Positions 3,309 through 46,717 of a DNA stretch of 51,466 nt are shown here, piece after piece. Numbering within the stretch: position 1 is the first letter of the stretch; every line of letters begins with the position of its first letter. Made by a program: the position numbers and the translations under genes. The DNA lies in IMG/VR virus record IMGVR_UViG_2703718856_000005; one strand, written 5' to 3'. The notes under the pieces are model-generated. The model did not search any database, was not told the DNA's origin, and saw nothing but the letters and a program-made list of their open reading frames with translations. The stretch comes from a virus (taxonomy: Duplodnaviria; Heunggongvirae; Uroviricota; Caudoviricetes).

Positions 3309-3884
3309 CTACGGCAGTGCTGGCCATTCAATATCCTGTGCAGTTGACGTATCAACACGGTTCAGCAATACCCGATACTTTTTCCATGCTTCCAGCAACG
3401 AGATTTCTTCCTCCGTTGCAATTTCCAGATCTGCAGCATCCTGAAGCGGCGCAATATGCTCACTGGCTACCTGCATCAGGCTGTTTTTTGTTTCTTCCGC
3501 CTCCCGGATCCGGAACAGTTTTTCTGCTTCCGTATCCTTCACCCAGGCTGTGCCGTTCCACTTCTGATATTCCCCTCCCGGCGATAACCAGGTAACATTT
3601 TCCGGTAACGGACCGAGTTCAGAAATAAATAACGCGTCGCCGGAAGCCACGTCATAAACCGTTTTACCCCGATGATCTTCAACGAGATGCCACGATGCCT
3701 CATCACTGTTGAAAACAGCCACGAAGCCTGCCGGAATATCTGGCGGTGCAATATCGATACTGTTTGCTGGCAGACCTGTATGAGGCGGAATATATGCGTC
3801 ACCTTCACCAATAAATTCATTAGTTCCGGCCAGCAGATTATAAATTTTTATGGTCCGTGGTTGTTCACTCATTCTGAATGCCAT
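3309..3884 (-). CDS. tfa: tail fibre assembly protein Tfa
   Basis: 191 aa ORF immediately downstream of stf, start overlapping the stf stop; translation recalled as the lambda/Qin Tfa family. Confidence 0.85.
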
Positions 3885-28162: not shown

Positions 28163-28391
28163 GCAAAAAAGCTCCCGAAGGAGCCTTCATTTTCACTTTT
28201 TTAAATCCAACGACAGACGGCTGGCATTTAAGTATTGTGAAATATTATCAAATGTAATCATCATTGATTTACAAAAGATACATTTTGCCCCGAAAGGATT
28301 CATGTCAGAAACATCAAAAGATGATGTTCTATACTGGGAACCATGACAACACGGGCATCTAAAGTGAATATGGTTTGTAATATTGTCTACC

Positions 28392-28604
28392 TCAAAGCGC
28401 CACTACATGAACAGCGGCAGGACCTTTAGGTCCGTTCTCAATACCAAATTCAACTTCCTGATTCTCAGTTAATGTTTTGAAATCGTTGCTCTGAATTGCT
28501 GAGAAATGGACAAACACATCTTTGCTGCCATCTTTCGGCGTGATGAAACCAAAACCTTTTTCAGGGTTAAACCATTTCACTAAACCAGTCATTTTGTTAG
28601 ACAT
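28392..28604 (-). CDS. cspI: cold shock protein CspI-like
   Basis: 70 aa; RNP motifs KGFGFI and VFVHF. Confidence 0.9.
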
Positions 28605-28966
28605 AATTATTACCTTTTGAAGAAATTAGCCCTTGGGCAGAATGGTCCGAAAAAAAATATCAGAGAGAAAAACCAACAAGGAAATCTCAAGAGGTACAAA
28701 TAATAAAATTATAACAATGACTGCTTCAGATAAATTTGTAACAAACCAGAACACCATTAACGCATGATTAACCACCCATAGCAAGGATTACTTTTGTAAA
28801 GAAAAACACAGCAATGAAAGAATAGCTTTATTTATTAATAAAACGTGTCATTCTGATTAAGACCTTTTATCTTACCCTTAAGATTTCAGGAATTTTGGCT
28901 CATGGAAGAGTCCTTTTTATTTAAATTTTACATTCCGCGATGTAAATGTTCCGATTTAATATTACC

Positions 28967-30993: not shown

Positions 30994-31275
30994 TGAGATT
31001 GTGGTGCTTTTTGTGGGAGTCATCCACTTACGCACTTTGTTTTGCCATGCCAGCAGTTAGCTTCTGCTGTAAAACTATTCATGCAGCAAACCTGCACTTC
31101 ACCACAATGGTTAGCATACTTTTCCTGATTAATATTTTGCCAAATATGCTAGCCATTGTTTCATGTATTGGACCTCCTTACTTTTTATTAAAGAGATCCA
31201 ATATTCACTACTCTGTCCGTATCTCTACTCAGGCATCAGCCTTCTTCGTTATCGTATACAGACGAGCGATGAATT

Positions 31276-31491
31276 TTAATCAGTAATGATGACATTTGCT
31301 GCTGCAGGACCTTTAGCACCACTCTCTATAGAGAAGGTAACCTTTTGACCTTCAAATAAGGTTCGATAATTATCATTCTGAATCGCAGAAAAATGCACAA
31401 ACACATCTTTACTACCATCAACAGGAGAAATAAAGCCGAAACCTTTATCAGCGTTAAACCATTTTACTAAACCAGTCATTTTATTTGACAT
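31276..31491 (-). CDS. cspB: cold shock protein CspB-like
   Basis: 71 aa; [23 protein letters not shown] with RNP motifs. Confidence 0.9.
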
Positions 31492-31791
31492 TCTACATTC
31501 CTTAACTTGAGCCTTTCGGCATAAATGGTTTGCATAACAGAAACGACTTCGTACTTAATTGGAGAGACTCAAAGAAGGAATAAGTGAATAACACCTGAAA
31601 TGAGAACTGCTTTAGTAAACTACTTCGTATATCGTCTGTTCTTCAAACCGACGCAATCATTAACGCATAGTTGAACATATGAAGCAATGTTTATTTTAGA
31701 CATCCAGCCATCTTCAACCCCATCAAAAAACTATAGCTTTCTTCAGGAACGTGTGTATAGTGCGCCAAGTTATCAGTATTAAGGAATTTTT

Positions 31792-32425: not shown

Positions 32426-33178
32426 TTATCTCGTCACCTTCCTCAATTGCGCTTCCGCGTATGCTTCTTCCTGCCAGCACTTTGTTACCAGTTTACCAAT
32501 GACGTCCGCATACCCCTTATACCACTGATAATCGGTCAGGTCTGGTACCAGCTTCTGGACATGACGTCGTGCCAGCGTGGTCGGTAAACGACTAAACCGG
32601 TTTCCATTACAACGCCCACAAATCTTATATACCGGTACGCCATGAAACCGGGTTCTTTTTTCATCCAGAACAATCCCTTTACCCTTACACCCTCTGCACG
32701 CTGTGCTGGCTTCGCCCTTACCATGGCAATGCTGACATAGTTCCTTCACCCATTCTTCCTTGATTACAGATTCCCCGCGTCTGTAGTGTTTCACCACTTC
32801 GCGCAATACATTATAAAATCCCGTACCTGAACAATGCTCACCGCGAGCCTTACTTGCCGCAGACCTGGAGTAATCAGCAAAGGCAAAACTCACGAGGTAA
32901 GGAATAATCTGTAACCGGATTTCTTCACTCAATTTGTTCAATGTCGGGTTATCCAGTGCCATCGCGTAATTTAGCAGGCCTTCAATCGCAAACTGAGGGT
33001 CCTGAACACCAACTTTTGCCAGAAATAAGGCCAACCCAAGTGGTGCTTTCGACTGCACCATCCCCTGCGCTGCCATTACATCCGTAATTGTTAAACAACC
33101 GGTGCCTGTCGCTGGAGCGTCATCGCTCAATTTTGGAGATTTTGGGGAGTAATATTTTGGTAAGGCTTCAAGGTTCAT
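32426..33178 (-). CDS. quuQ: late-gene antitermination protein Q (250 aa from internal start)
   Basis: Cys-rich zinc-binding region CQHCHGKGE...CRGCKGKG and position upstream of the lysis genes. Confidence 0.8.
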   Translation of the reverse strand: MNLEALPKYYSPKSPKLSDDAPATGTGCLTITDVMAAQGMVQSKAPLGLALFLAKVGVQDPQFAIEGLLNYAMALDNPTLNKLSEEIRLQIIPYLVSFAFADYSRSAASKARGEHCSGTGFYNVLREVVKHYRRGESVIKEEWVKELCQHCHGKGEASTACRGCKGKGIVLDEKRTRFHGVPVYKICGRCNGNRFSRLPTTLARRHVQKLVPDLTDYQWYKGYADVIGKLVTKCWQEEAYAEAQLRKVTR

Positions 33179-33191
33179 GCTCGTTCTCCAC

Positions 33192-34280
33192 TTACGCCAG
33201 TACGCCAATTGCCAGCGCGCGATCGATAAAACGAAATATCAGCTCCAGTTGGGAGCCATACTTATCTTCAAATGCCACTGTATCCGTATGCAGCTCGTTG
33301 TGATGCTTTCTGCACAAAGGCAACACAAAGAGATCATGTGCTTTTGTTCCCATTCCGCCCTGCCCGTGACCAATCAGATGATGCGGATCGTCGGCTGGCA
33401 TACCGCAGCAAGCACACGGCTGTGTCTTAACCCAACGTGTGTATTTCTCCTTAACCCAGCGGCGACGTTTAGGCAGCTTCATGAAAGATTCCGGAGACTC
33501 TGGATCAACGGTGATGCTTACCACCGTCTTTTCCTGTGGTGATTTTTGTTGCTGGTGGGCGTAAGGCAACGGTGCAAGATTTTTTGTGCGTTGTTTCAAT
33601 ATGCTGGTGGCGGTCTGCTCTCCCGGTACGATGTCGCTTTCGCGGTACACCGAGCAGATTTTTTCCGCTGGTAATCCCAGCGAACGACGCGATACAGCCT
33701 CAGGTAGTGCATCCACCACCTGATTGCAGACCGCCCACCAGGATAATTCAGCCAAAGATAATTCCCGCTCCTGCGTACCGCTTATTGCGTGACGGATGAC
33801 GTCAATCACCCATGCTGTCAGATTTTGTTGAGCAAGCAGCTCCAGTGATTCCGATGTCTGGTCACGCAGTTGGTTGTCGCAGTGCCAGCACAACACCATT
33901 GCGCCGGTACCATAACGGTGAATGACTGTTTCAGTGTGATGGTAATCGCCATTAGGCCACTGGCAGGATGTAACATGACGTAATAGCCAGTCGGACAATG
34001 CGCCAACGCCGCCAGCAGCACGAATCACCCGTTCGTTACTAAAAAACGGCAGCAATGTTTTGTCTTCCGCCAGCGGCTGGCGAACGGCAGGAACGACTCC
34101 GGATGGCAGATTACGCATGCTTTTTGGTTCCGGTTCCACCAGCACTCGAGGATTATGAAATATCTGTATGGATTCACGGCCCGGCTTAAGGACCACCAGC
34201 CCAAGCTCAGGCACCAGAACAGGTCTAAGTAATACCCGCACGTTACCTCCAGATCCGTTGCTGGAAAGTGCGGGACGCAC
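33192..34280 (-). CDS. ydfU: DUF968-family protein with HNH-like Cys/His motif (YdfU-like)
   Basis: C-terminal PCACCGMPADDPHHL...LCRKHHNELH motif; start codon uncertain. Confidence 0.65.
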   Translation of the reverse strand: MRPALSSNGSGGNVRVLLRPVLVPELGLVVLKPGRESIQIFHNPRVLVEPEPKSMRNLPSGVVPAVRQPLAEDKTLLPFFSNERVIRAAGGVGALSDWLLRHVTSCQWPNGDYHHTETVIHRYGTGAMVLCWHCDNQLRDQTSESLELLAQQNLTAWVIDVIRHAISGTQERELSLAELSWWAVCNQVVDALPEAVSRRSLGLPAEKICSVYRESDIVPGEQTATSILKQRTKNLAPLPYAHQQQKSPQEKTVVSITVDPESPESFMKLPKRRRWVKEKYTRWVKTQPCACCGMPADDPHHLIGHGQGGMGTKAHDLFVLPLCRKHHNELHTDTVAFEDKYGSQLELIFRFIDRALAIGVLA

Positions 34281-34955: not shown

Positions 34956-34991
34956 AAAATAAAAACAAAAACCCGCCGAAGCGGGTTAAGT
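34956..34991 (-). terminator. rho-independent terminator of the relB-relE-hokD transcript
   Basis: AACCCGCTTCGGCGGGTT hairpin followed by TTTTTGTTTTTATTTT on the minus strand. Confidence 0.55.
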
Positions 34992-35055
34992 GCGGGTGCG
35001 TTGAGGATGCCTGCCACATCAGAGGTGGCGAGGGATTTCTCCCCCGCCGGGTCTC

Positions 35056-35211
35056 TTACTCCTCAGGTTCGTAAGCTGTGAAGACAGCGACCTCCGTCTG
35101 GCCGGTTCGGATTCGTACCTCGCAGAGGTCTTTCCTCGTTACCAGTGCCGTCACTATGACGGTTAAACAGATGACGATCAGGGCGATTAACATCGCCTTT
35201 TGCTGCTTCAT
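35056..35211 (-). CDS. hokD: Hok-family type I membrane toxin (51 aa)
   Basis: Hand translation MKQQKAMLIALIVICLTVIVTALVTRKDLCEVRIRTGQTEVAVFTAYEPEE; codons verified; below track cutoff. Confidence 0.85.
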   Translation of the reverse strand: MKQQKAMLIALIVICLTVIVTALVTRKDLCEVRIRTGQTEVAVFTAYEPEE

Positions 35212-35282
35212 AGCCTGCTTCTCCTGTCAACGCAAAGCAGAAGTGTCACCTTCGGTGCGAAACAGAGATGTCATGCTTTGGT

Positions 35283-35570
35283 TCAGAGAATGCGTTTGAC
35301 CGCCTCGCTATATACTTCCGAGCGTTCTCTTTTCCCAACAGAAATCACGAAAACGACAACTTTCTCGTCTATAACCTGGTATACAAGGCGATAGCCTGAA
35401 GACCGGAGCTTAATCTTGTAACAATCAGGCATACCACGGAGCTTGTTTGCTTCAATCCGGGGTGACTCAAGTACTTCAACCAGCTTCTTTTTCAACTGTT
35501 CACGTACCGTCGAGCCCAGCTTTCGCCATTCCTTTAGTGCCCGCTCGTCAAAATCCAGAAAATACGCCAT
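35283..35570 (-). CDS. relE: RelE mRNA interferase toxin
   Basis: 95 aa, recalled as RelE. Confidence 0.9.
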   Translation of the reverse strand: MAYFLDFDERALKEWRKLGSTVREQLKKKLVEVLESPRIEANKLRGMPDCYKIKLRSSGYRLVYQVIDEKVVVFVISVGKRERSEVYSEAVKRIL

Positions 35571-35809
35571 CAGAGTTCATCCAGCGTCACACGTACTGGC
35601 TTAGGATTACGAAGCCGTTCTTTCACTATCTCCACAAGTTCAGCATCTTCATCACTCAGGAGTGTCTGTTTGAACGGCAAGCGTTCATTGTCAGCGATAT
35701 ACTCGAGCATGAGACGAAGCGCTTCAGAAGGAGTTACACCCATTTTTTCAAGCGCGGCGTAAGAACGCGCTTTAAGTTCATCGTCAATACGCAGGTTAAT
35801 GCTACCCAT
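35570..35809 (-). CDS. relB: RelB antitoxin
   Basis: 79 aa, recalled as RelB; overlaps the relE start. Confidence 0.9.
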   Translation of the reverse strand: MGSINLRIDDELKARSYAALEKMGVTPSEALRLMLEYIADNERLPFKQTLLSDEDAELVEIVKERLRNPKPVRVTLDEL

Positions 35810-35833
35810 GTCTTACACCTCTTGTAATTACAA

Positions 35834-36139
35834 ATGTCATTACAAGTATCGCACTACAACATGCTTAGGGCAAGTCACGAAGGAAGTCAGAAAGTAGTCG
35901 TAAGAACGGTGATCACTGTCCGCTTTGTGCCAGGAGCAGCCATTGCTAAGTCCATCCTGTATTGTGCAGGTCAGCTCGTTTTTAAAGAGTCCGGCCATCA
36001 TCTTACTGGTACAGACACCATATACTTTGTGACGGTCAGGCTACATATGCACAACTCAACTTATTCATCTATTTTTTGCTTTAGCATGTCAGTGTTGCTT
36101 TCTCGTCGGCGGGTGAGCGGTGACCTGACCTGTCGATAA
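35834..36139 (+). CDS. ydfV: YdfV-like ORF; may not be a real gene
   Basis: 101 aa ORF with atypical composition in the position annotated as ydfV in Qin. Confidence 0.3.
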   Translation: MSLQVSHYNMLRASHEGSQKVVVRTVITVRFVPGAAIAKSILYCAGQLVFKESGHHLTGTDTIYFVTVRLHMHNSTYSSIFCFSMSVLLSRRRVSGDLTCR

Positions 36140-36291
36140 AGGAACGTAACACGTTTTATGCAACACCCGCATGCGGCAGAAAATTATTGCCGAACGTTTA
36201 CCCCTGTCAACAAGCTTTACTTTCTGAGGCGCGCCAGCCCGCGAGGAAAACAATCTGAACATCAAACAATTAATGACACAAGAAATACGAT

Positions 36292-36318
36292 TAAAGATTT
36301 TTTTGTGCATGCCGATAG
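36292..36318 (+). promoter_or_regulatory. sigma-28 (FliA) class 3 flagellar promoter for flxA
   Basis: TAAA, 15 nt spacer, GCCGATAG: close to consensus TAAA-N15-GCCGATAA, 23 nt upstream of flxA. Confidence 0.55.
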
Positions 36319-36341
36319 TGCTTTTTTAAAAGGAGAAATCT

Positions 36342-36674
36342 ATGTCTGTCACAATTCAGGGAAATACCTCAACCGTTATTTCAAACAACTCCGCCCCGGA
36401 AGGAACATCAGAAATAGCCAAAATCACAAGACAAATTCAGGTGCTGACTGAAAAGCTTGGGAAAATCTCATCGGAAGAGGGGATGACGACACAGCAGAAA
36501 AAAGAAATGGCTGCATTGGTACAGAAGCAAATTGAAAGCCTCTGGGCTCAACTGGAGCAGTTGTTAAGGCAGCAGGCAGAGAAAAAGAATGAAGACGCGA
36601 CAGTTCAGCCTGATAAAAAAGAAGAGAAAAAAGACGATACAAATACCGCTGGCACCATTGATATTTACGTCTAA
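36342..36674 (+). CDS. flxA: FlxA, FliA-regulated protein
   Basis: 110 aa, recalled as FlxA. Confidence 0.85.
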   Translation: MSVTIQGNTSTVISNNSAPEGTSEIAKITRQIQVLTEKLGKISSEEGMTTQQKKEMAALVQKQIESLWAQLEQLLRQQAEKKNEDATVQPDKKEEKKDDTNTAGTIDIYV

Positions 36675-36688
36675 GTGACAGCCGTATT

Positions 36689-36712
36689 GTGGCCCTCATC
36701 GGGCCACTTTTC
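36689..36712 (+). terminator. rho-independent terminator after flxA
   Basis: GTGGCCC-TCATC-GGGCCAC followed by TTTT. Confidence 0.55.
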
Positions 36713-37110
36713 GCCATCAGCCTTTTCTTTAAAGACATATTATCTTTGTATCATTTCTGATAGTTAACATTACAAGATATAAGTAATGGACGCACTCCCA
36801 ATTAGTCTATTTAAATCGCCACGAGTTTAACTGACAACCCATGATCAATTATGAATTGCAACTATTTCTGTAGTCACTTTTGTGGGGACAGTCCACAAAA
36901 CTGCCAACTTCCGCTTCTTGCTCTTAGCGGACATTAGCATAGGCTATTTACCATAACGCCTCATTACGCGCACCGCCCAGACTGACTCAGCGCGTTTCTG
37001 GCATATCCCCGGTAAAACAAGTAACAAACCACCCGAAAATGAACACCAGAAACGCGACTTAAGAATCTACCCTATGAATGGATATGCACTCAACCGAATC
37101 GATCTTGGTT

Positions 37111-38424
37111 TCAATCTTTTTTATCGGGATCAGGCTTCTTTTTAGGTAACTTCGGGGGCTTAACTTGCTGATGACTTTGCGTTCGGCGCGTAAGCCAGGG
37201 ATGGTCAGCTTTAGGTTTAACATAGTATTTTGAGCGTAAATCAATACGGGCATTATCCACTCGTTCATGGACACTCTTTTCATCATCCAGTGGTATAGGC
37301 TCCGGGCCATCAACATACTTTTCCCAGCCCAGCGCTTTCCCGTCATACAGAACGTTAATTTCACCGTCAAAGTTCTCGCATACAGTAACAACCGAATGCC
37401 TAAGTCGATATCCCCGGCCCTCACTGCGTACCTGAAACGCACTGCTTTTGTACTGGAAAGTGAGATTTTTAGACAGAACGCGCTTCGCCTGTAGGCTGAA
37501 GATATAACCCAGTTCCTCTTCAGAATGGTGCACATCAAGATGAGCATTATCAGTAGTACGAGGCGACGTAGCGAACCGGTTGTTATAGGCTTCAATAAAG
37601 GTCGGCAACCATGCATTTGCTGTTTCAATATCACTGATATTCTGAAGCCGCATTTCTTTGACCAGCCTGTCCTGTAGTGTCTGATTGGCGCGCTCTACCC
37701 GCCCTTTTGCCTGCGGGCTGTTGGCATGGATTGGCTCGATGCCCAGTGTCTTTATCGCACGAGTGAACTGGGTCAGCTCAACTTCCCGCTCTGGGTTATT
37801 TACCCTGAATATACTGTGTCTATCAGAGTAGAGAGCGAGCGGTACGCCATGATCATTAAGGTAACCCCGGAGGGTTTCCATGTAAGCCCGGGTTGTTTCA
37901 GCAGGCACAAAACGCAACGCCATCAACGCACTGGTGGCATCATCAATGAAAACGATCAGTGTACATCTGGGGCCTCGATTTTCAAACCAGTCATGAGGTG
38001 AGCCATCAATCTGGATCAGTTCACCGTAAGATGGTCGTCGCATGCGGCGTTGATATATACGGGCAATTTTACGACGGCGTTCACGCCATAACCCCTCTTC
38101 TATCATCCACTTTCTGAGGGTTTCAACGGATAAAGATAAACCGTGTATCTCGCGCAATTTTTCGCACGCAAACGTAGGTCCAAAATCAGCGTAACGGCCT
38201 TTGAGGAGTGAAATTACTGTTGCTCTGAATTCAGTAGAAAAGGAATTATTAGGACGCTTTCCACGTCGGTGGGAAACCAGACCAGAAGGCCCTTCATTTC
38301 TATACCGTTGCACCAGACGTTTAACCTGCCGAATAGAAATGCCAATGCGTGCCGCAGCTTGTTCCTGAATAATCTGAAGTCGGTGGAGTTCCTTATGACT
38401 CATCGTAACAGTCTCTTTGATCAT
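37111..38424 (-). CDS. DDE transposase with N-terminal helix-turn-helix and rve-type integrase core (IS481/ISNCY-like architecture)
   Basis: 437 aa; catalytic-core-like segments QIDGSPHDW, LYSDRHSIF and KGRVERANQTLQ; element ends not resolved. Confidence 0.8.
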   Translation of the reverse strand: MIKETVTMSHKELHRLQIIQEQAAARIGISIRQVKRLVQRYRNEGPSGLVSHRRGKRPNNSFSTEFRATVISLLKGRYADFGPTFACEKLREIHGLSLSVETLRKWMIEEGLWRERRRKIARIYQRRMRRPSYGELIQIDGSPHDWFENRGPRCTLIVFIDDATSALMALRFVPAETTRAYMETLRGYLNDHGVPLALYSDRHSIFRVNNPEREVELTQFTRAIKTLGIEPIHANSPQAKGRVERANQTLQDRLVKEMRLQNISDIETANAWLPTFIEAYNNRFATSPRTTDNAHLDVHHSEEELGYIFSLQAKRVLSKNLTFQYKSSAFQVRSEGRGYRLRHSVVTVCENFDGEINVLYDGKALGWEKYVDGPEPIPLDDEKSVHERVDNARIDLRSKYYVKPKADHPWLTRRTQSHQQVKPPKLPKKKPDPDKKD

Positions 38425-38758
38425 GAAAAATCCCCCAGAGAATTGTCTGGGGACATTTTAGAATGGTTCAAAGGGGACATTACAGCTTGGTGTTAACAAT
38501 AGCCTGCTTCTCCGTGCCTTTCGGCACGTAAGAGGCTAACCTACATGTGTCTAGCATGAAATTGGCCTCAGATTAATGTTAAGCGTCTTGCAGGACGCGT
38601 AATGTTAACTGGGGCTTTTCTCTATCTGCCGTTGGTGTCCATGCCCGAGGCAGATAGCCTCAAGCACCCGCAGTCATTCTACTTAACTAAGATTTCCCCG
38701 CAAACCGTTTTTGTCCAGCACAGTAAATATCCAACTAAACCAATGGAGTTCGCTGTAT

Positions 38759-38977: not shown

Positions 38978-39476
38978 ACCTCAATTTGGCCGGACATATA
39001 AATATCTAAACCAGAAAAAATCACTTACATAGCGTTACAAACTCTTTAGTCTAAAGGTTCATCGTAAAATATTCCCCATACTTATCAGTCCGTTCCGCGC
39101 CAGGTAGCTCATTGCCTTATCTGGCAACCTGTAATCAGGTTTCCGCTTTTTCAGTTGGCTGGTCGTTTAACCGACATAGTTAATCCATTAATCTAGTTGC
39201 CGGATGTTGGTGGATTTTCGCGTTTTAGTTGTTCATAAAAGTGCACAGCTTTAACCAGTTCTTCTGATGTAACTGGGACTGGTGAGGCAGTGAATAAGGC
39301 CTGAATTTGATAGTTCGGCCTGTCGTTACAATCCTCTTTTTTCGGTACATATTTCCAGTCACCAGACCACTACTTCCCCTGAAAGTCCGTAACGCCTTTT
39401 TTCACGTAGCGATATCGCCATGCCACTGGTTTTGCTTGCCCCGCCGTTTCATGCCCTTCCTGATAATTAATCTCGC

Positions 39477-39668
39477 TCATTCATCGCCCCACTCATCACA
39501 ATATGCTTCGACCGGAGTTTTTCCCGCTTCATAGTCATCACGCTAGGATTCGACATCAGCAGCACTTCCACCGCGTAACTCACCATAGTCCATTAATAGT
39601 TCATCCCGCTCTTCAAAACTGATGTTATATTTAGCTGAACAAAAATCAGCCACTTTGTTCTTCCTCAT
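39477..39668 (-). pseudogene. small ORF interrupted by an in-frame TAG, followed by overlapping short ORFs; decayed nin-region genes
   Basis: Hand translation MRKNKVADFCSAKYNISFEERDELLMDYGELRGGSAADVES-stop-RDDYEAGKTPVEAYCDEWGDE; next ORF overlaps by ATGA. Confidence 0.3.
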
Positions 39669-39824
39669 CGTCTTTTATTTCGTGGTATGAGTAATTGCAG
39701 TAGTTAAAGAAAATTTCTTATGCTCCGTCATGAATTTCCGTAAGCGTAAACTGACCGCCGTATGTAGCCATCAGACGAGAATTGGTAACTTAGACGCCCA
39801 TCTGATATAGACGGACATCTAAGT

Positions 39825-40250
39825 ATGGAATTACAGGACTGGCGAAAAGAACCTCGTAAAAACTATTCGAATGAATTCAAACTTCGTATGGTGGAACTGG
39901 CATCACAACCTGGAGCTTGTGTTGCACAGATTGCACGTGAAAATGGCGTCAATGATAATGTTATTTTCAAATGGCTCAGGCTCTGGCAGAACGAAGGGCG
40001 TGTTTCGCGGCGTCTTCCGGTAACGACCTCTTCTGACACTGGCGTTGAATTATTACCTGTAGAAATAACGCCGGATGAGCAGAAAGAACCTGTGGCGGCC
40101 ATTGCGCCGTCTTTATCCACTTCCACTCAGACCAGAGTCAGTGCCAGTTCCTGCAAGGTGGAATTCCGTCACGGTAACATGACGCTGGAAAATCCATCGC
40201 CAGAGCTGCTCACAGTGTTGATCCGTGAACTGACCGGGAGGGGAAGATGA
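39825..40250 (+). CDS. tnpA: IS66-family accessory protein TnpA (orf1)
   Basis: 141 aa with helix-turn-helix, first ORF of the element. Confidence 0.85.
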   Translation: MELQDWRKEPRKNYSNEFKLRMVELASQPGACVAQIARENGVNDNVIFKWLRLWQNEGRVSRRLPVTTSSDTGVELLPVEITPDEQKEPVAAIAPSLSTSTQTRVSASSCKVEFRHGNMTLENPSPELLTVLIRELTGRGR

Positions 40251-40597
40251 TCTCACTCCCATCAGGTACCCGTATCTGGCTCGTTGCCGGCGTTACCGAT
40301 ATGCGTAAATCCTTCAACGGACTGGGAGAACAGGTACAACATGTGCTGAATGATAATCCCTTCTCCGGTCACCTGTTTATCTTCCGTGGCCGACGGGGTG
40401 ACACCGTCAAAATTCTTTGGGCTGATGCTGATGGTCTGTGCCTGTTCACCAAACGCCTGGAGGAAGGCCAGTTTATCTGGCCTGCGGTACGTGACGGCAA
40501 GGTATCCATTACCCGCTCGCAACTGGCAATGCTCCTCGATAAGCTGGACTGGCGTCAGCCAAAAACATCCAGCCGTAACTCACTGACAATGTTGTAA
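40247..40597 (+). CDS. tnpB: IS66-family TnpB (orf2)
   Basis: 116 aa; start overlaps the tnpA stop. Confidence 0.9.
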   Translation: MISLPSGTRIWLVAGVTDMRKSFNGLGEQVQHVLNDNPFSGHLFIFRGRRGDTVKILWADADGLCLFTKRLEEGQFIWPAVRDGKVSITRSQLAMLLDKLDWRQPKTSSRNSLTML

Positions 40598-40627
40598 AAA
40601 ACTCCTGACCGCATTATAAAAACGGTC

Positions 40628-42241
40628 ATGAGTCAGAAATACCTCATTCGCATCGCAGAGCTGGAAAGGTTGCTCTCTGAGCAGGCTGAAGCCCTCCGTC
40701 AGAAAGACCAGCAACTGAGTCTGGTTGAAGAGACGGAAGCCTTCCTGCGCTCTGCACTGACACGTGTCGAAGAAAAGATCGAAGAAGATGAACGGGAAAT
40801 AGAACATCTGCGGGCTCAGATAGAAAAACTGCGCCGGATGCTGTTCGGTACCCGTTCTGAAAAACTGCGTCGTGAAGTTGAACTGGCTGAGGCTCTGCTG
40901 AAACAACGTGAACAGGACAGCGATCGTTACAGTGGGCGGGAAGACGATCCTCAGGTTCCCCGCCAGTTGCGACAGTCGCGCCATCGTCGTCCGTTACCGG
41001 CACACCTTCCCCGTGAAATACACCGCCTGGAGCCAGAAGAAAGCTGTTGCCCGGAGTGTGGCGGTGAGCTGGATTATCTGGGGGAAGTCAGCGCTGAACA
41101 GCTGGAACTGGTGAGCAGTGCCCTGAAAGTGATCCGCACAGAACGGGTAAAAAAAGCCTGTACAAAATGTGACTGTATTGTTGAAGCACCGGCGCCGTCC
41201 CGCCCGGTAGAGCGTGGTATCGCGGGCCCCGGATTACTTGCCCGCGTGTTAACGGGAAAATACTGCGAACATCTGCCACTGTATCGTCAGAGTGAAATCT
41301 TTGCCCGCCAGGGTGTCGAACTGAGCCGGGCCTTACTCTCCAACTGGGTTGACGCGTGCTGCCAGTTAATGACACCGGTGAATGATGCCCTGTACCGTTA
41401 TGTAATGAACACCCGCAAGGTTCACACTGATGACACACCGGTAAAGGTACTGGCACCGGGTCAGAAAAAGGCGAAAACAGGGCGTATCTGGACGTATGTC
41501 CGGGATGATCGCAATGTGGGTTCGTCATCTCCTCCAGCGGTCTGGTTCGCGTACTCGCCGAACCGGCAGGGGAAACACCCGGAGCAACACCTCCGCCCCT
41601 TCCGGGGTATCCTGCAGGCGGATGCGTTCACAGGTTACGACAGGTTGTTCAGTGCAGAACGTGAAGGTGGTGCACTGACAGAAGTTGCGTGCTGGGCCCA
41701 TGCCCGGCGAAAAATCCACGATGTATACATCAGCAGCAAAAGTGCGACGGCAGAAGAAGCCCTGAAGCGAATCAGTGAACTGTACGCCATCGAGGATGAA
41801 ATACGGGGATTACCGGAGTCAGAGCGTCTTGCCGTCAGGCAGCAGCGAAGCAAAGTGTTACTGACGTCGCTGCATGAATGGATGGTGGAGAAGAATGGTA
41901 CGCTGTCGAAAAAATCCAGACTGGGCGAAGCGTTCAGCTATGTACTGAATCAGTGGGATGCCCTCTGTTATTACAGTGATGACGGTCTGGCGGAGGCGGA
42001 TAATAATGCTGCGGAAAGAGCGCTTCGTGCAGTCTGTCTCGGAAAGAAAAACTTTATGTTCTTTGGCAGCGATCACGGCGGCGAGCGTGGAGCACTGTTG
42101 TACGGGCTGATCGGCACCTGCCGTCTGAACGGTATCGATCCGGAAGCGTATCTGCGCCATATCCTGAGCGTACTGCCGGAATGGCCTTCCAACCGAGTTG
42201 ATGAACTCCTGCCATGGAACGTAGTACTCACCAATAAATAA
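40628..42241 (+). CDS. tnpC: IS66-family transposase TnpC (orf3)
   Basis: 537 aa; N-terminal coiled coil, CxxC zinc motifs, DDE-type core. Confidence 0.9.
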   Translation: MSQKYLIRIAELERLLSEQAEALRQKDQQLSLVEETEAFLRSALTRVEEKIEEDEREIEHLRAQIEKLRRMLFGTRSEKLRREVELAEALLKQREQDSDRYSGREDDPQVPRQLRQSRHRRPLPAHLPREIHRLEPEESCCPECGGELDYLGEVSAEQLELVSSALKVIRTERVKKACTKCDCIVEAPAPSRPVERGIAGPGLLARVLTGKYCEHLPLYRQSEIFARQGVELSRALLSNWVDACCQLMTPVNDALYRYVMNTRKVHTDDTPVKVLAPGQKKAKTGRIWTYVRDDRNVGSSSPPAVWFAYSPNRQGKHPEQHLRPFRGILQADAFTGYDRLFSAEREGGALTEVACWAHARRKIHDVYISSKSATAEEALKRISELYAIEDEIRGLPESERLAVRQQRSKVLLTSLHEWMVEKNGTLSKKSRLGEAFSYVLNQWDALCYYSDDGLAEADNNAAERALRAVCLGKKNFMFFGSDHGGERGALLYGLIGTCRLNGIDPEAYLRHILSVLPEWPSNRVDELLPWNVVLTNK

Positions 42242-42630
42242 GCGTCAATACGGTGCTCCGTTGACGCTTACGAATTTCCTCAGGTGTTGCGTCATCGTCC
42301 ACTTCGAATACATCCTCAAAATCTCCACCAGCTATTCCCGTTTCAATAATAATTTTGAACTTTCGCATTTCACTACCGCCCTTTCGGGCGGCCTCCTGAT
42401 GTTCTGAGGGTGCAGAAATCCATCCGGTTAAGGATTAAATTTTATTTACAGAACTGAATTTAATTATTCAGATATACGTATCTGTAGCCTTACGAATCTA
42501 CTCACTGGATGCCTCTTTCATAAAAATAATCCAGTGGGTTTTATCGTTTTTTCCCTGTTCGTTGACAGATAACAGGTTTTCTGTCTGTCAGTGCCAGAAT
42601 CTGGCTTACCGGTATTTGCGTTTCATTCCA

Positions 42631-42987
42631 TTAAAAAATCAGAACGCCGTGCGGCCTCAACACCCGAAAGGCTTCTTTAAATCTCTGTCGCGAATCATCA
42701 CGCCAGGCATCTTTATTCAGCCGTCCATATTTCTTTCCCATCCAGGCGTTATCACCAACACTCTCAAGATGCGGAGGGTCTAATACAACCATCGAAAAAG
42801 ATGCGTCTGCAAATGATAATGCACGAAAATCTGCGATAATGTCAGGGCTGATAATCAAGCGTCTCCCATTGCGTAATGTGTATCCTTCTTTTCTGATATC
42901 GCTGAATATCGCCCGTTCGTCAGACTTATCGAACCAGAACATGCGGCTGCCACAGCACATATCAAGAATGGTTGCCGGTGCACTCAC
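42631..42987 (-). CDS. DNA methyltransferase-like protein, short (118 aa), possibly truncated
   Basis: SAM-binding-like ILDMCCGSRMF and a DPPH motif resembling the DPPY catalytic motif of amino-methyltransferases. Confidence 0.45.
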   Translation of the reverse strand: MSAPATILDMCCGSRMFWFDKSDERAIFSDIRKEGYTLRNGRRLIISPDIIADFRALSFADASFSMVVLDPPHLESVGDNAWMGKKYGRLNKDAWRDDSRQRFKEAFRVLRPHGVLIF

Positions 42988-46659: not shown

Positions 46660-46717
46660 TTTCTGGTGACGTTTGGCGGTATCAGTTTTACTCCGTGACT
46701 GCTCTGCCGCCCTTTTT
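46660..46717 (+). ncRNA. dicF: DicF small RNA (ftsZ-targeting, Hfq-dependent), with its intrinsic terminator
   Basis: TTTCTGGTGACGTTTGGCGGTATCAGTTTTACTCCGTGACTGCTCTGCCGCCCTTTTT matches the recalled DicF sequence; sits between ydfC and dicB. Confidence 0.7.

Follow-up and report, generated by a model that had tools for sequence, protein, structure and literature searches.

The locus examined here raises the question of how an insertion sequence (IS) came to lie among the early genes of a prophage, and whether the gene that it interrupts, or the prophage around it, lost anything by its arrival. The window (the whole stretch of DNA that was analyzed) is the Caudoviricetes virus record IMGVR_UViG_2703718856_000005, 51,466 nucleotides (nt) long, and the element is an IS66-family insertion sequence that splits a small open reading frame (ORF). 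Our answer, in which we have very high confidence, is that a complete copy of ISEc23 transposed once, and recently, into the nin-like region of an Escherichia coli Qin-type prophage, and that its target was already a pseudogene at the time.

A complete ISEc23 copy between perfect target-site duplications

The element, its ends, and the flanking octamers lie in the window as follows.

39732-39739: left copy of the target-site duplication, GAATTTCC
39740-42271, plus strand: element assigned to ISEc23 (IS66 family), full 2,532-bp copy, 100% identical to RefSeq copies annotated as ISEc23
39740-39763, plus strand: left terminal inverted repeat, GTAAGCGTAAACTGACCGCCGTAT, 20 of 24 positions pairing with the right end
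42248-42271, minus strand: right terminal inverted repeat, GTAAGCGTCAACGGAGCACCGTAT, 20 of 24 positions pairing with the left end
42272-42279: right copy of the target-site duplication, GAATTTCC

In a megablast search of complete RefSeq E. coli genomes, the 2,532 bp were matched over their full length, and at 100% identity, by copies annotated as "IS66-like element ISEc23 family transposase," TnpA, or TnpB, and 2,100 records, comprising both chromosomes and plasmids, held a copy at an identity of at least 99%. On this identity we assign the element to ISEc23, which is already catalogued within the IS66 family, the name being taken from the RefSeq/PGAP annotation of identical copies as a proxy for the ISfinder reference; nothing contradicts the identification. 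The terminal inverted repeats are imperfect and both open with GTAAGCGT. The outermost letters of the element are GTAAGCGTAAAC from 39740 and GTTGACGCTTAC up to 42271, and its right end reads ATACGGTGCTCCGTTGACGCTTAC on the plus strand.

Both copies of GAATTTCC stand flush against the element ends and agree at 8 of 8 positions, for which the chance at fixed ends is about 4^-8, or 1.5e-5. The octamer occurs three times in the whole window, close to the chance expectation, so its significance comes from its placement at both ends and not from its copy number. An earlier note on this sequence had described an IS66-family element with a perfect 8-bp duplication; both descriptions hold, and the family can now be narrowed to ISEc23. 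The span that it gave, 39722-42279, needs correction, however, as the element proper occupies 39740-42271. Position 39722 does not mark an IS end; it falls at a distance of 2 nt from the stop codon (39718-39720) that closes the restored ORF.

Three intact, consecutive ORFs on the plus strand fill the element.

39825-40250, plus strand: tnpA, a 141-aa helix-turn-helix accessory protein (PF01527 HTH_Tnp_1, E 5e-12)
40247-40597, plus strand: tnpB (IS66 Orf2), 116 aa (PF05717, E 1e-36, 125 bits)
40628-42241, plus strand: tnpC, a 537-aa DDE transposase (PF03050, E 6e-98, 328 bits, profile positions 1-283 of 284)

The start of tnpB overlaps the stop of tnpA as ATGA. With the IS66 protein models, TnpA reached 83 bits (NF047595 IS66_ISRel24_TnpA; cut-off 74), TnpB 120.9 bits (NF033819; cut-off 50), and TnpC 450 bits (NF033517; cut-off 180), and TnpC further contains leucine-zipper, zinc-finger, and C-terminal domains (PF13007, PF13005, and PF13817). 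The hallmarks of the IS66 family are a tnpA-tnpB-tnpC layout, imperfect inverted repeats that start with GTAAGCG, and an 8-bp target duplication. The window element has the gene trio, the tnpA/tnpB overlap, an IS66 DDE TnpC, an Orf2-type TnpB, GTAAGCG repeats, and the 8-bp duplication. These defining features are said to go back to Han and colleagues in 2001 and Gourbeyre and colleagues in 2010; a need for all three proteins in transposition has reportedly been demonstrated for IS679, an element other than ISEc23. Judging from its intact ORFs, its identity to many other copies, and the occurrence of both empty and occupied sites, the ISEc23 copy described here is probably still active.

Empty and occupied sites

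We deleted 39740-42279 in silico and joined 300 bp from each side into a 600-bp query. The excised sequence was found at 100% identity in all of the 30 genomes listed, including ATCC 8739, E. coli W, 042, IAI39, CE10, and UMNK88, and at an identity of at least 99% in 474 records. Compared with it, the empty-site genomes showed no deletion, inversion, or added base. The more distant, uninterrupted homologues in phages 606R7 and Rac 442/2 (85-92% identity) likewise span the site: both flanks can be aligned, and the two aligned blocks overlap by 7 nt at the octamer. The proposal that the duplication marks a simple transposition is thereby upheld, the empty site being present at 100% identity in many genomes, and excision followed by reannotation returned the exact empty-site sequence together with the 36-codon ORF discussed below.

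The occupied site is rare. A 200-bp left-junction probe was matched in full by 8 of 5,426 complete genomes, in each case at 100% identity, and the same eight genomes (CFSAN061762, G5, PF9285, 1008S13, 20A24, LR-21-1, EC102, and LST200A) rank top for a 24-kb query across the region. Because the IS has not diverged from copies elsewhere, occupied sites are rare, and the eight genomes agree in both site and orientation, we infer one recent event that was inherited by a small group of strains; their single origin is read from the identical site, orientation, and sequence. In the process envisaged, TnpC with the accessory proteins TnpA and TnpB would have cut the two strands at GAATTTCC with a stagger of 8 bp, and repair of the gaps would then have duplicated the octamer, a scheme borrowed from knowledge of the IS66 family and of which the DNA preserves the outcome only.

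The element boundaries are confirmed by independent copies that share the same ends between other flanks. One of these, in strain RM14721 (L006, 3245-5776), lies in ydfR (DUF1327) of the same Qin-type prophage with the target-site duplication AGTTACCG and differs from the window copy by four single-nucleotide polymorphisms. Another, on contig L009, is bordered by TTATTTAC at a site unrelated to that in the window.

The target was already a pseudogene

The interrupted gene belongs to the DUF7167 family and is split by the element into two parts.

42280-42368, minus strand: 5′ part of the interrupted DUF7167/phrog_1997 pseudogene, with the ATG at 42368 (PF23768, 29 bits)
39646-39739, minus strand: 3′ part of the DUF7167 pseudogene, with TAA (codon 37) at 39718-39720 and the ancestral TGA at 39646-39648

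Excision restores MRKFKIIIETGIAGGDFEDVFEVDDDATPEEIHDGA followed by a stop, an ORF of 36 codons on the minus strand, which is exactly the product that had been predicted, and the ORF is present in uninterrupted homologues. Comparison with the family indicates that this ORF is the front part of a nonsense-truncated 60-codon DUF7167 gene and not a complete gene. Past the TAA, 23 more codons continue in frame (EIFFNYCNYSYHEIKDDEEEQSG) up to a TGA, and the insertion point falls at codon 32/33 of the 60-codon gene, five codons upstream of the TAA. The 60-residue read-through covers positions 1-60 of the 60 in PF23768 at 50 bits (cut-off 24.4) and positions 1-57 of the 57 in phrog_1997 (E 2e-28), and the 36-aa product covers positions 1-34 of PF23768 at 29.9 bits. 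A full-length ORF of about 60 codons is therefore absent here even after excision, owing to the TAA at codon 37.

In ATCC 8739 and RM14721, PGAP records the uninterrupted copy as a "DUF7167 family protein" pseudogene of 183 nt that contains an internal stop, and PhiR42_1, a Qin-type element of ECOR13 without the IS, has the same TAA. A tblastn search of phage genomes found full-length DUF7167 homologues in 16 phage records. In the Shiga toxin (Stx) phage ArgO145 and in phage 606R7, the 60-codon ORF is intact, codon 37 being AAA (Lys) in place of the TAA of Qin and the stop standing at the same position; the homologue in Rac 442/2 has lost its ATG and gained a further stop. Since the uninterrupted Qin copies, including that of PhiR42_1, carry TAA and the phage homologues AAA, the A-to-T nonsense mutation (AAA to TAA) appears firmly placed before the ISEc23 insertion. 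With the target already a pseudogene, no working gene would have been lost. The claim of the earlier note that the element sits in a small ORF is accordingly right as to location, but the small gene was not intact, given the pre-existing TAA. A literature search on DUF7167 found no paper mentioning it.

The insertion has also created a misleading ORF of 46 aa (42228-42368, minus strand), in which the DUF7167 start reads on into the IS end. It consists of 32 genuine DUF7167 codons and 14 codons from the right end of the IS, and PGAP labels this chimera "DUF7167 family protein" in the occupied genome CFSAN061762.

The prophage and its nin-like region

From its gene content and order we assign the window to a long Qin-type lambdoid prophage of E. 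coli, adjoining ydfJ. Its alignment with the E. coli CFSAN061762 chromosome shows six mismatches in 50 kb, an identity of 99.99%. As annotated there, the order is int, xis, exo, ydfD, dicB, DicF, ydfC/B/A, dicA, dicC, a YdaT/CII-like gene, a 321-aa gene, DUF977, a methyltransferase gene, and DUF7167. Farther on lie relBE, hokD, rem, ydfU, ydfT (Q), cspF/B, the lysis genes, cspI, and nohA, and the prophage ends with complete head and tail genes, pinQ, and ydfK. The dicA/dicC switch, DicF, dicB, relBE-hokD, Q, the lysis genes, and the csp genes are thus all present in the Qin order. In Pfam, dicC matches P22_Cro and ydfT matches the antitermination protein Q family (PF03589). In PHROGs, the 321-aa protein matches phrog_391, "replication initiation O-like" (E 1e-91), the DUF977 protein is a "Ren-like exclusion protein," and the YdaT-like protein is a "CII-like activator."

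The early-right genes lie on the minus strand of the window, and ISEc23 stands antisense to the dicC (cro-like) transcription unit. It is placed between the O-like, Ren-like, and methyltransferase genes and the Q antiterminator gene (32426-33208), which is about 6.5 kb away. The idea that the insertion parts the replication genes from the rest of the operon is topologically right, with the O-like gene upstream and Q downstream.

This operon has been damaged in other ways. The two ORFs that follow DUF7167 (39432-39668, minus strand), of 41 and 36 aa, are truncated remnants of genes that have 58 and 211 codons in ArgO145, and PGAP flags part of the stretch as frameshifted; the nin-like region of Qin thus reads as a run of pseudogenes. 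The hok/sok locus, contiguous in phages 606R7 and Rac 442/2, is split here into parts at 34967-35225 and 38499-38712 (minus strand), so that the sok/mok half (Rfam sok match at 38498-38669) lies 3.3 kb from the hokD half. The intervening block (about 35226-38498) contains relBE, ydfV and flxA on the opposite strand, ydfW, and a further transposase-like ORF.

37111-38424: ISNCY-like 437-aa ORF with helix-turn-helix and rve_3 domains

The 3.3-kb block has the appearance of a composite insertion that entered hok/sok at an earlier time. The operon was both decayed and interrupted before ISEc23 arrived, being broken in relatives without the IS as well.

Alternative explanations and possible consequences

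The element might have arrived other than by simple transposition, through recombination between IS copies or as part of a composite transposon, or its junction might be an assembly artefact. IS-mediated rearrangements do occur in the family: among five complete related copies that were compared, L010 and L014 lack matching 8-bp flanks, as expected after such an event. Here, by contrast, the 8-bp duplication is perfect, excision gives a 100%-identical empty site without deletion or inversion, and no second copy or fragment of the element was found elsewhere in the window. The same junction in eight independently assembled complete genomes, together with the exact empty site, effectively rules out an assembly artefact or an origin by recombination, and we give such explanations practically no weight. 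A different objection concerns the target. The 36-aa N-terminal fragment of DUF7167 could in principle retain function, in which case the insertion would have removed its last four residues. Taken further, the 36-aa product would be a functional, naturally short DUF7167 variant that the IS destroyed. Both its start codon and the conserved module of AGGAGG and hairpin are still in place, its 29.9 bits exceed the Pfam cut-off, the TAA allele occurs at 100% identity in many genomes, and the ORF is an annotated coding sequence in PhiR42_1. However, the 23 codons beyond the TAA are still in frame, still homologous, and end at the ancestral stop, which argues for a recent nonsense mutation and not for an evolved short form; only positions 1-34 of the 60 in the profile are covered, PGAP calls the copy a pseudogene, and the decayed homologue in Rac 442/2 suggests that the family decays readily in cryptic prophages. 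We therefore regard a functional short variant as very improbable.

A broader claim is that the insertion inactivated a small gene that still worked, and that it harms the prophage by isolating its replication genes from Q and the late genes. The IS does lie inside the open part of the ORF and is antisense, between the O-like gene and Q, and a transcript coming from the dicC side would first meet a stable hairpin and then UUUAUU, where it could terminate. This hairpin is formed by a 32-nt palindrome (42239-42270) that begins at the tnpC stop codon and of which the right inverted repeat is half (fold of -17 kcal/mol, z -3.5), and the UUUAUU follows it in the minus-strand fold, that is, when it is read from outside the element. 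The IS-free Qin-type PhiR42_1 was, moreover, deposited as a complete 48.7-kb phage genome, so the type might be viable. Set against this, none of the uninterrupted Qin copies that were compared, PhiR42_1 among them, is free of the nonsense codon, the two ORFs that come next are cut short by comparison with ArgO145, and the 3.3-kb block with its opposite-strand genes and ISNCY-like transposase already lies between the site and Q. A simple terminator scan made no call at the IS end, and antiterminated phage transcription might read through the end hairpin. We consider an impairment of this kind unlikely and, as far as genome comparison can tell, would put a functional effect on the prophage at the same low level; if real, any such effect would be one of polarity and not the loss of a working gene, added transcriptional polarity being the only plausible consequence of the insertion. 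More speculatively still, the long Qin-type prophage might be inducible in some strains, and ISEc23 could then exert a polar effect that frees Q-dependent late expression from its coupling to the DicA/DicC switch. Its antisense orientation and the end hairpin with its U-rich tail would bring about this block, and the eight occupied strains would then represent a natural "locked prophage" variant. We find this scenario quite doubtful, and literature searches on PhiR42_1 and on the induction of Qin in ECOR strains yielded no relevant work. A single, recent transposition of ISEc23 into a gene that was already a pseudogene remains our preferred explanation.

Leader of DUF7167 and element hairpins

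Upstream of the DUF7167 ATG at 42368 are two leader features.

42392-42397, minus strand: AGGAGG
42375-42392, minus strand: GC-rich hairpin with a GAAA loop

The earlier observation that an AGGAGG and a GC hairpin precede the ORF is borne out, both being found at 42375-42397. The hairpin (GCCGCCC-GAAA-GGGCGGU) has a 7-bp stem in both the minimum-energy and the centroid fold and lies within the 23 nt that separate the AGGAGG from the ATG, a distance too great for an ordinary Shine-Dalgarno sequence unless the hairpin shortens the gap. The TCAGGAGGCCGCCCGAAAGGGCGGTAGTNAAATG module accompanies DUF7167 in ArgO145, 606R7, and Rac 442/2 (window 42366-42397, minus strand; L005, 2960-3003; L007 and L008, about 2460-2503). 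Because it is conserved with the gene despite unrelated DNA farther upstream, we regard the module as part of the gene cassette. The four homologues of the hairpin show one wobble-preserving change and one disruptive change, so that covariation is uninformative. The conserved AGGAGG-hairpin-ATG leader may be a split, hairpin-bridged ribosome-binding site that controls translation, and it is put forward here as a candidate.

Within the element, the right-end palindrome was considered as a conserved structure of the family and rejected, as the close copies are all identical, a relative of 84% identity (L021) lacks the complementarity, and there is no covariation support. A hairpin in the tnpA leader (39788-39824) was likewise set aside, being no more stable than shuffled sequences (z -0.7). 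A promoter and terminator scan of 39300-42700 gave counts no higher than those in shuffled sequence.

Other features and observations

Rfam matches elsewhere in the window include the following.

46661-46712, plus strand: DicF
3343-3541, minus strand: IS009 candidate small RNA
28365-28750 and 31260-31652, minus strand: cspA thermoregulator leaders upstream of cspI and cspB

The ydfU gene (DUF968; 33192-34241, minus strand) is intact in the window, and in CFSAN061762 the annotation makes it a pseudogene interrupted by an internal stop, a difference that would be one of the six mismatches between the two sequences. RM14721 additionally has an IS3-family element in its DUF977 gene, and the same prophage region in other strains carries ISEc22, ISEc8, IS3-family, and IS5-type elements. 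IS insertions in the Qin region are commonplace, since other strains carry several IS types there.

Sequences 91-100% identical to ISEc23 tnpC were also seen on short contigs (L009, L010, L011, L012, L015-L017, and L020) with the labels Clostridia metagenome-assembled genome (MAG), Moraxella osloensis, Streptococcus sanguinis, Rikenellaceae, Lachnospiraceae, Segatella copri, and Bacillota MAGs. These placements most likely reflect contamination from Enterobacteriaceae or mis-binning, not true spread across phyla.

The element, its family, the 8-bp duplication, and the exact insertion are already contained in public annotated genomes. The importance of the present analysis is mainly one of annotation, in that the boundaries are corrected, the interrupted ORF is a pseudogene, and the 46-aa protein called by PGAP is a chimera. 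The insertion could in addition mark the lineage of the small group of strains that carry it.

Comparison with known systems

The fully identical ISEc23 copies in RefSeq agree with the window element in their ends, their gene order, the 8-bp duplication, and all 2,532 bp, and differ from it in the insertion site only. With the IS679 and IS66 prototypes, ISEc23 shares the tnpA-tnpB-tnpC layout with overlapping tnpA and tnpB genes, imperfect terminal repeats of about 20-25 bp starting with GTAAGCG, an 8-bp duplication, and a length of about 2.5 kb, although it is a separate member of the family.

The DUF7167/phrog_1997 genes of lambdoid and Stx phages, such as that of ArgO145 (ARW58330.1), encode proteins with 88-90% aa identity to the Qin copy over 60 residues and have the same AGGAGG-hairpin-ATG leader, and those of 606R7 and Rac 442/2 share its position after the Ren-like DUF977/LygF gene. 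What sets the Qin copy apart is the TAA at codon 37 and, in the window, the additional IS at codon 32/33.

The Qin prophage of E. coli K-12 is about 20 kb long. Qin (Kim) and the window have in common dicA, dicC, ydfA, ydfB, ydfC, DicF, dicB, ydfD, relBE, hokD, rem, ydfU, ydfT (Q), cspB/F/I, essD, rrrQ, nohA, pinQ, and ydfK, as well as the location next to ydfJ. The window differs in being the long form, with int, xis, exo, the O-like gene, a full set of head and tail genes, and ISEc23.

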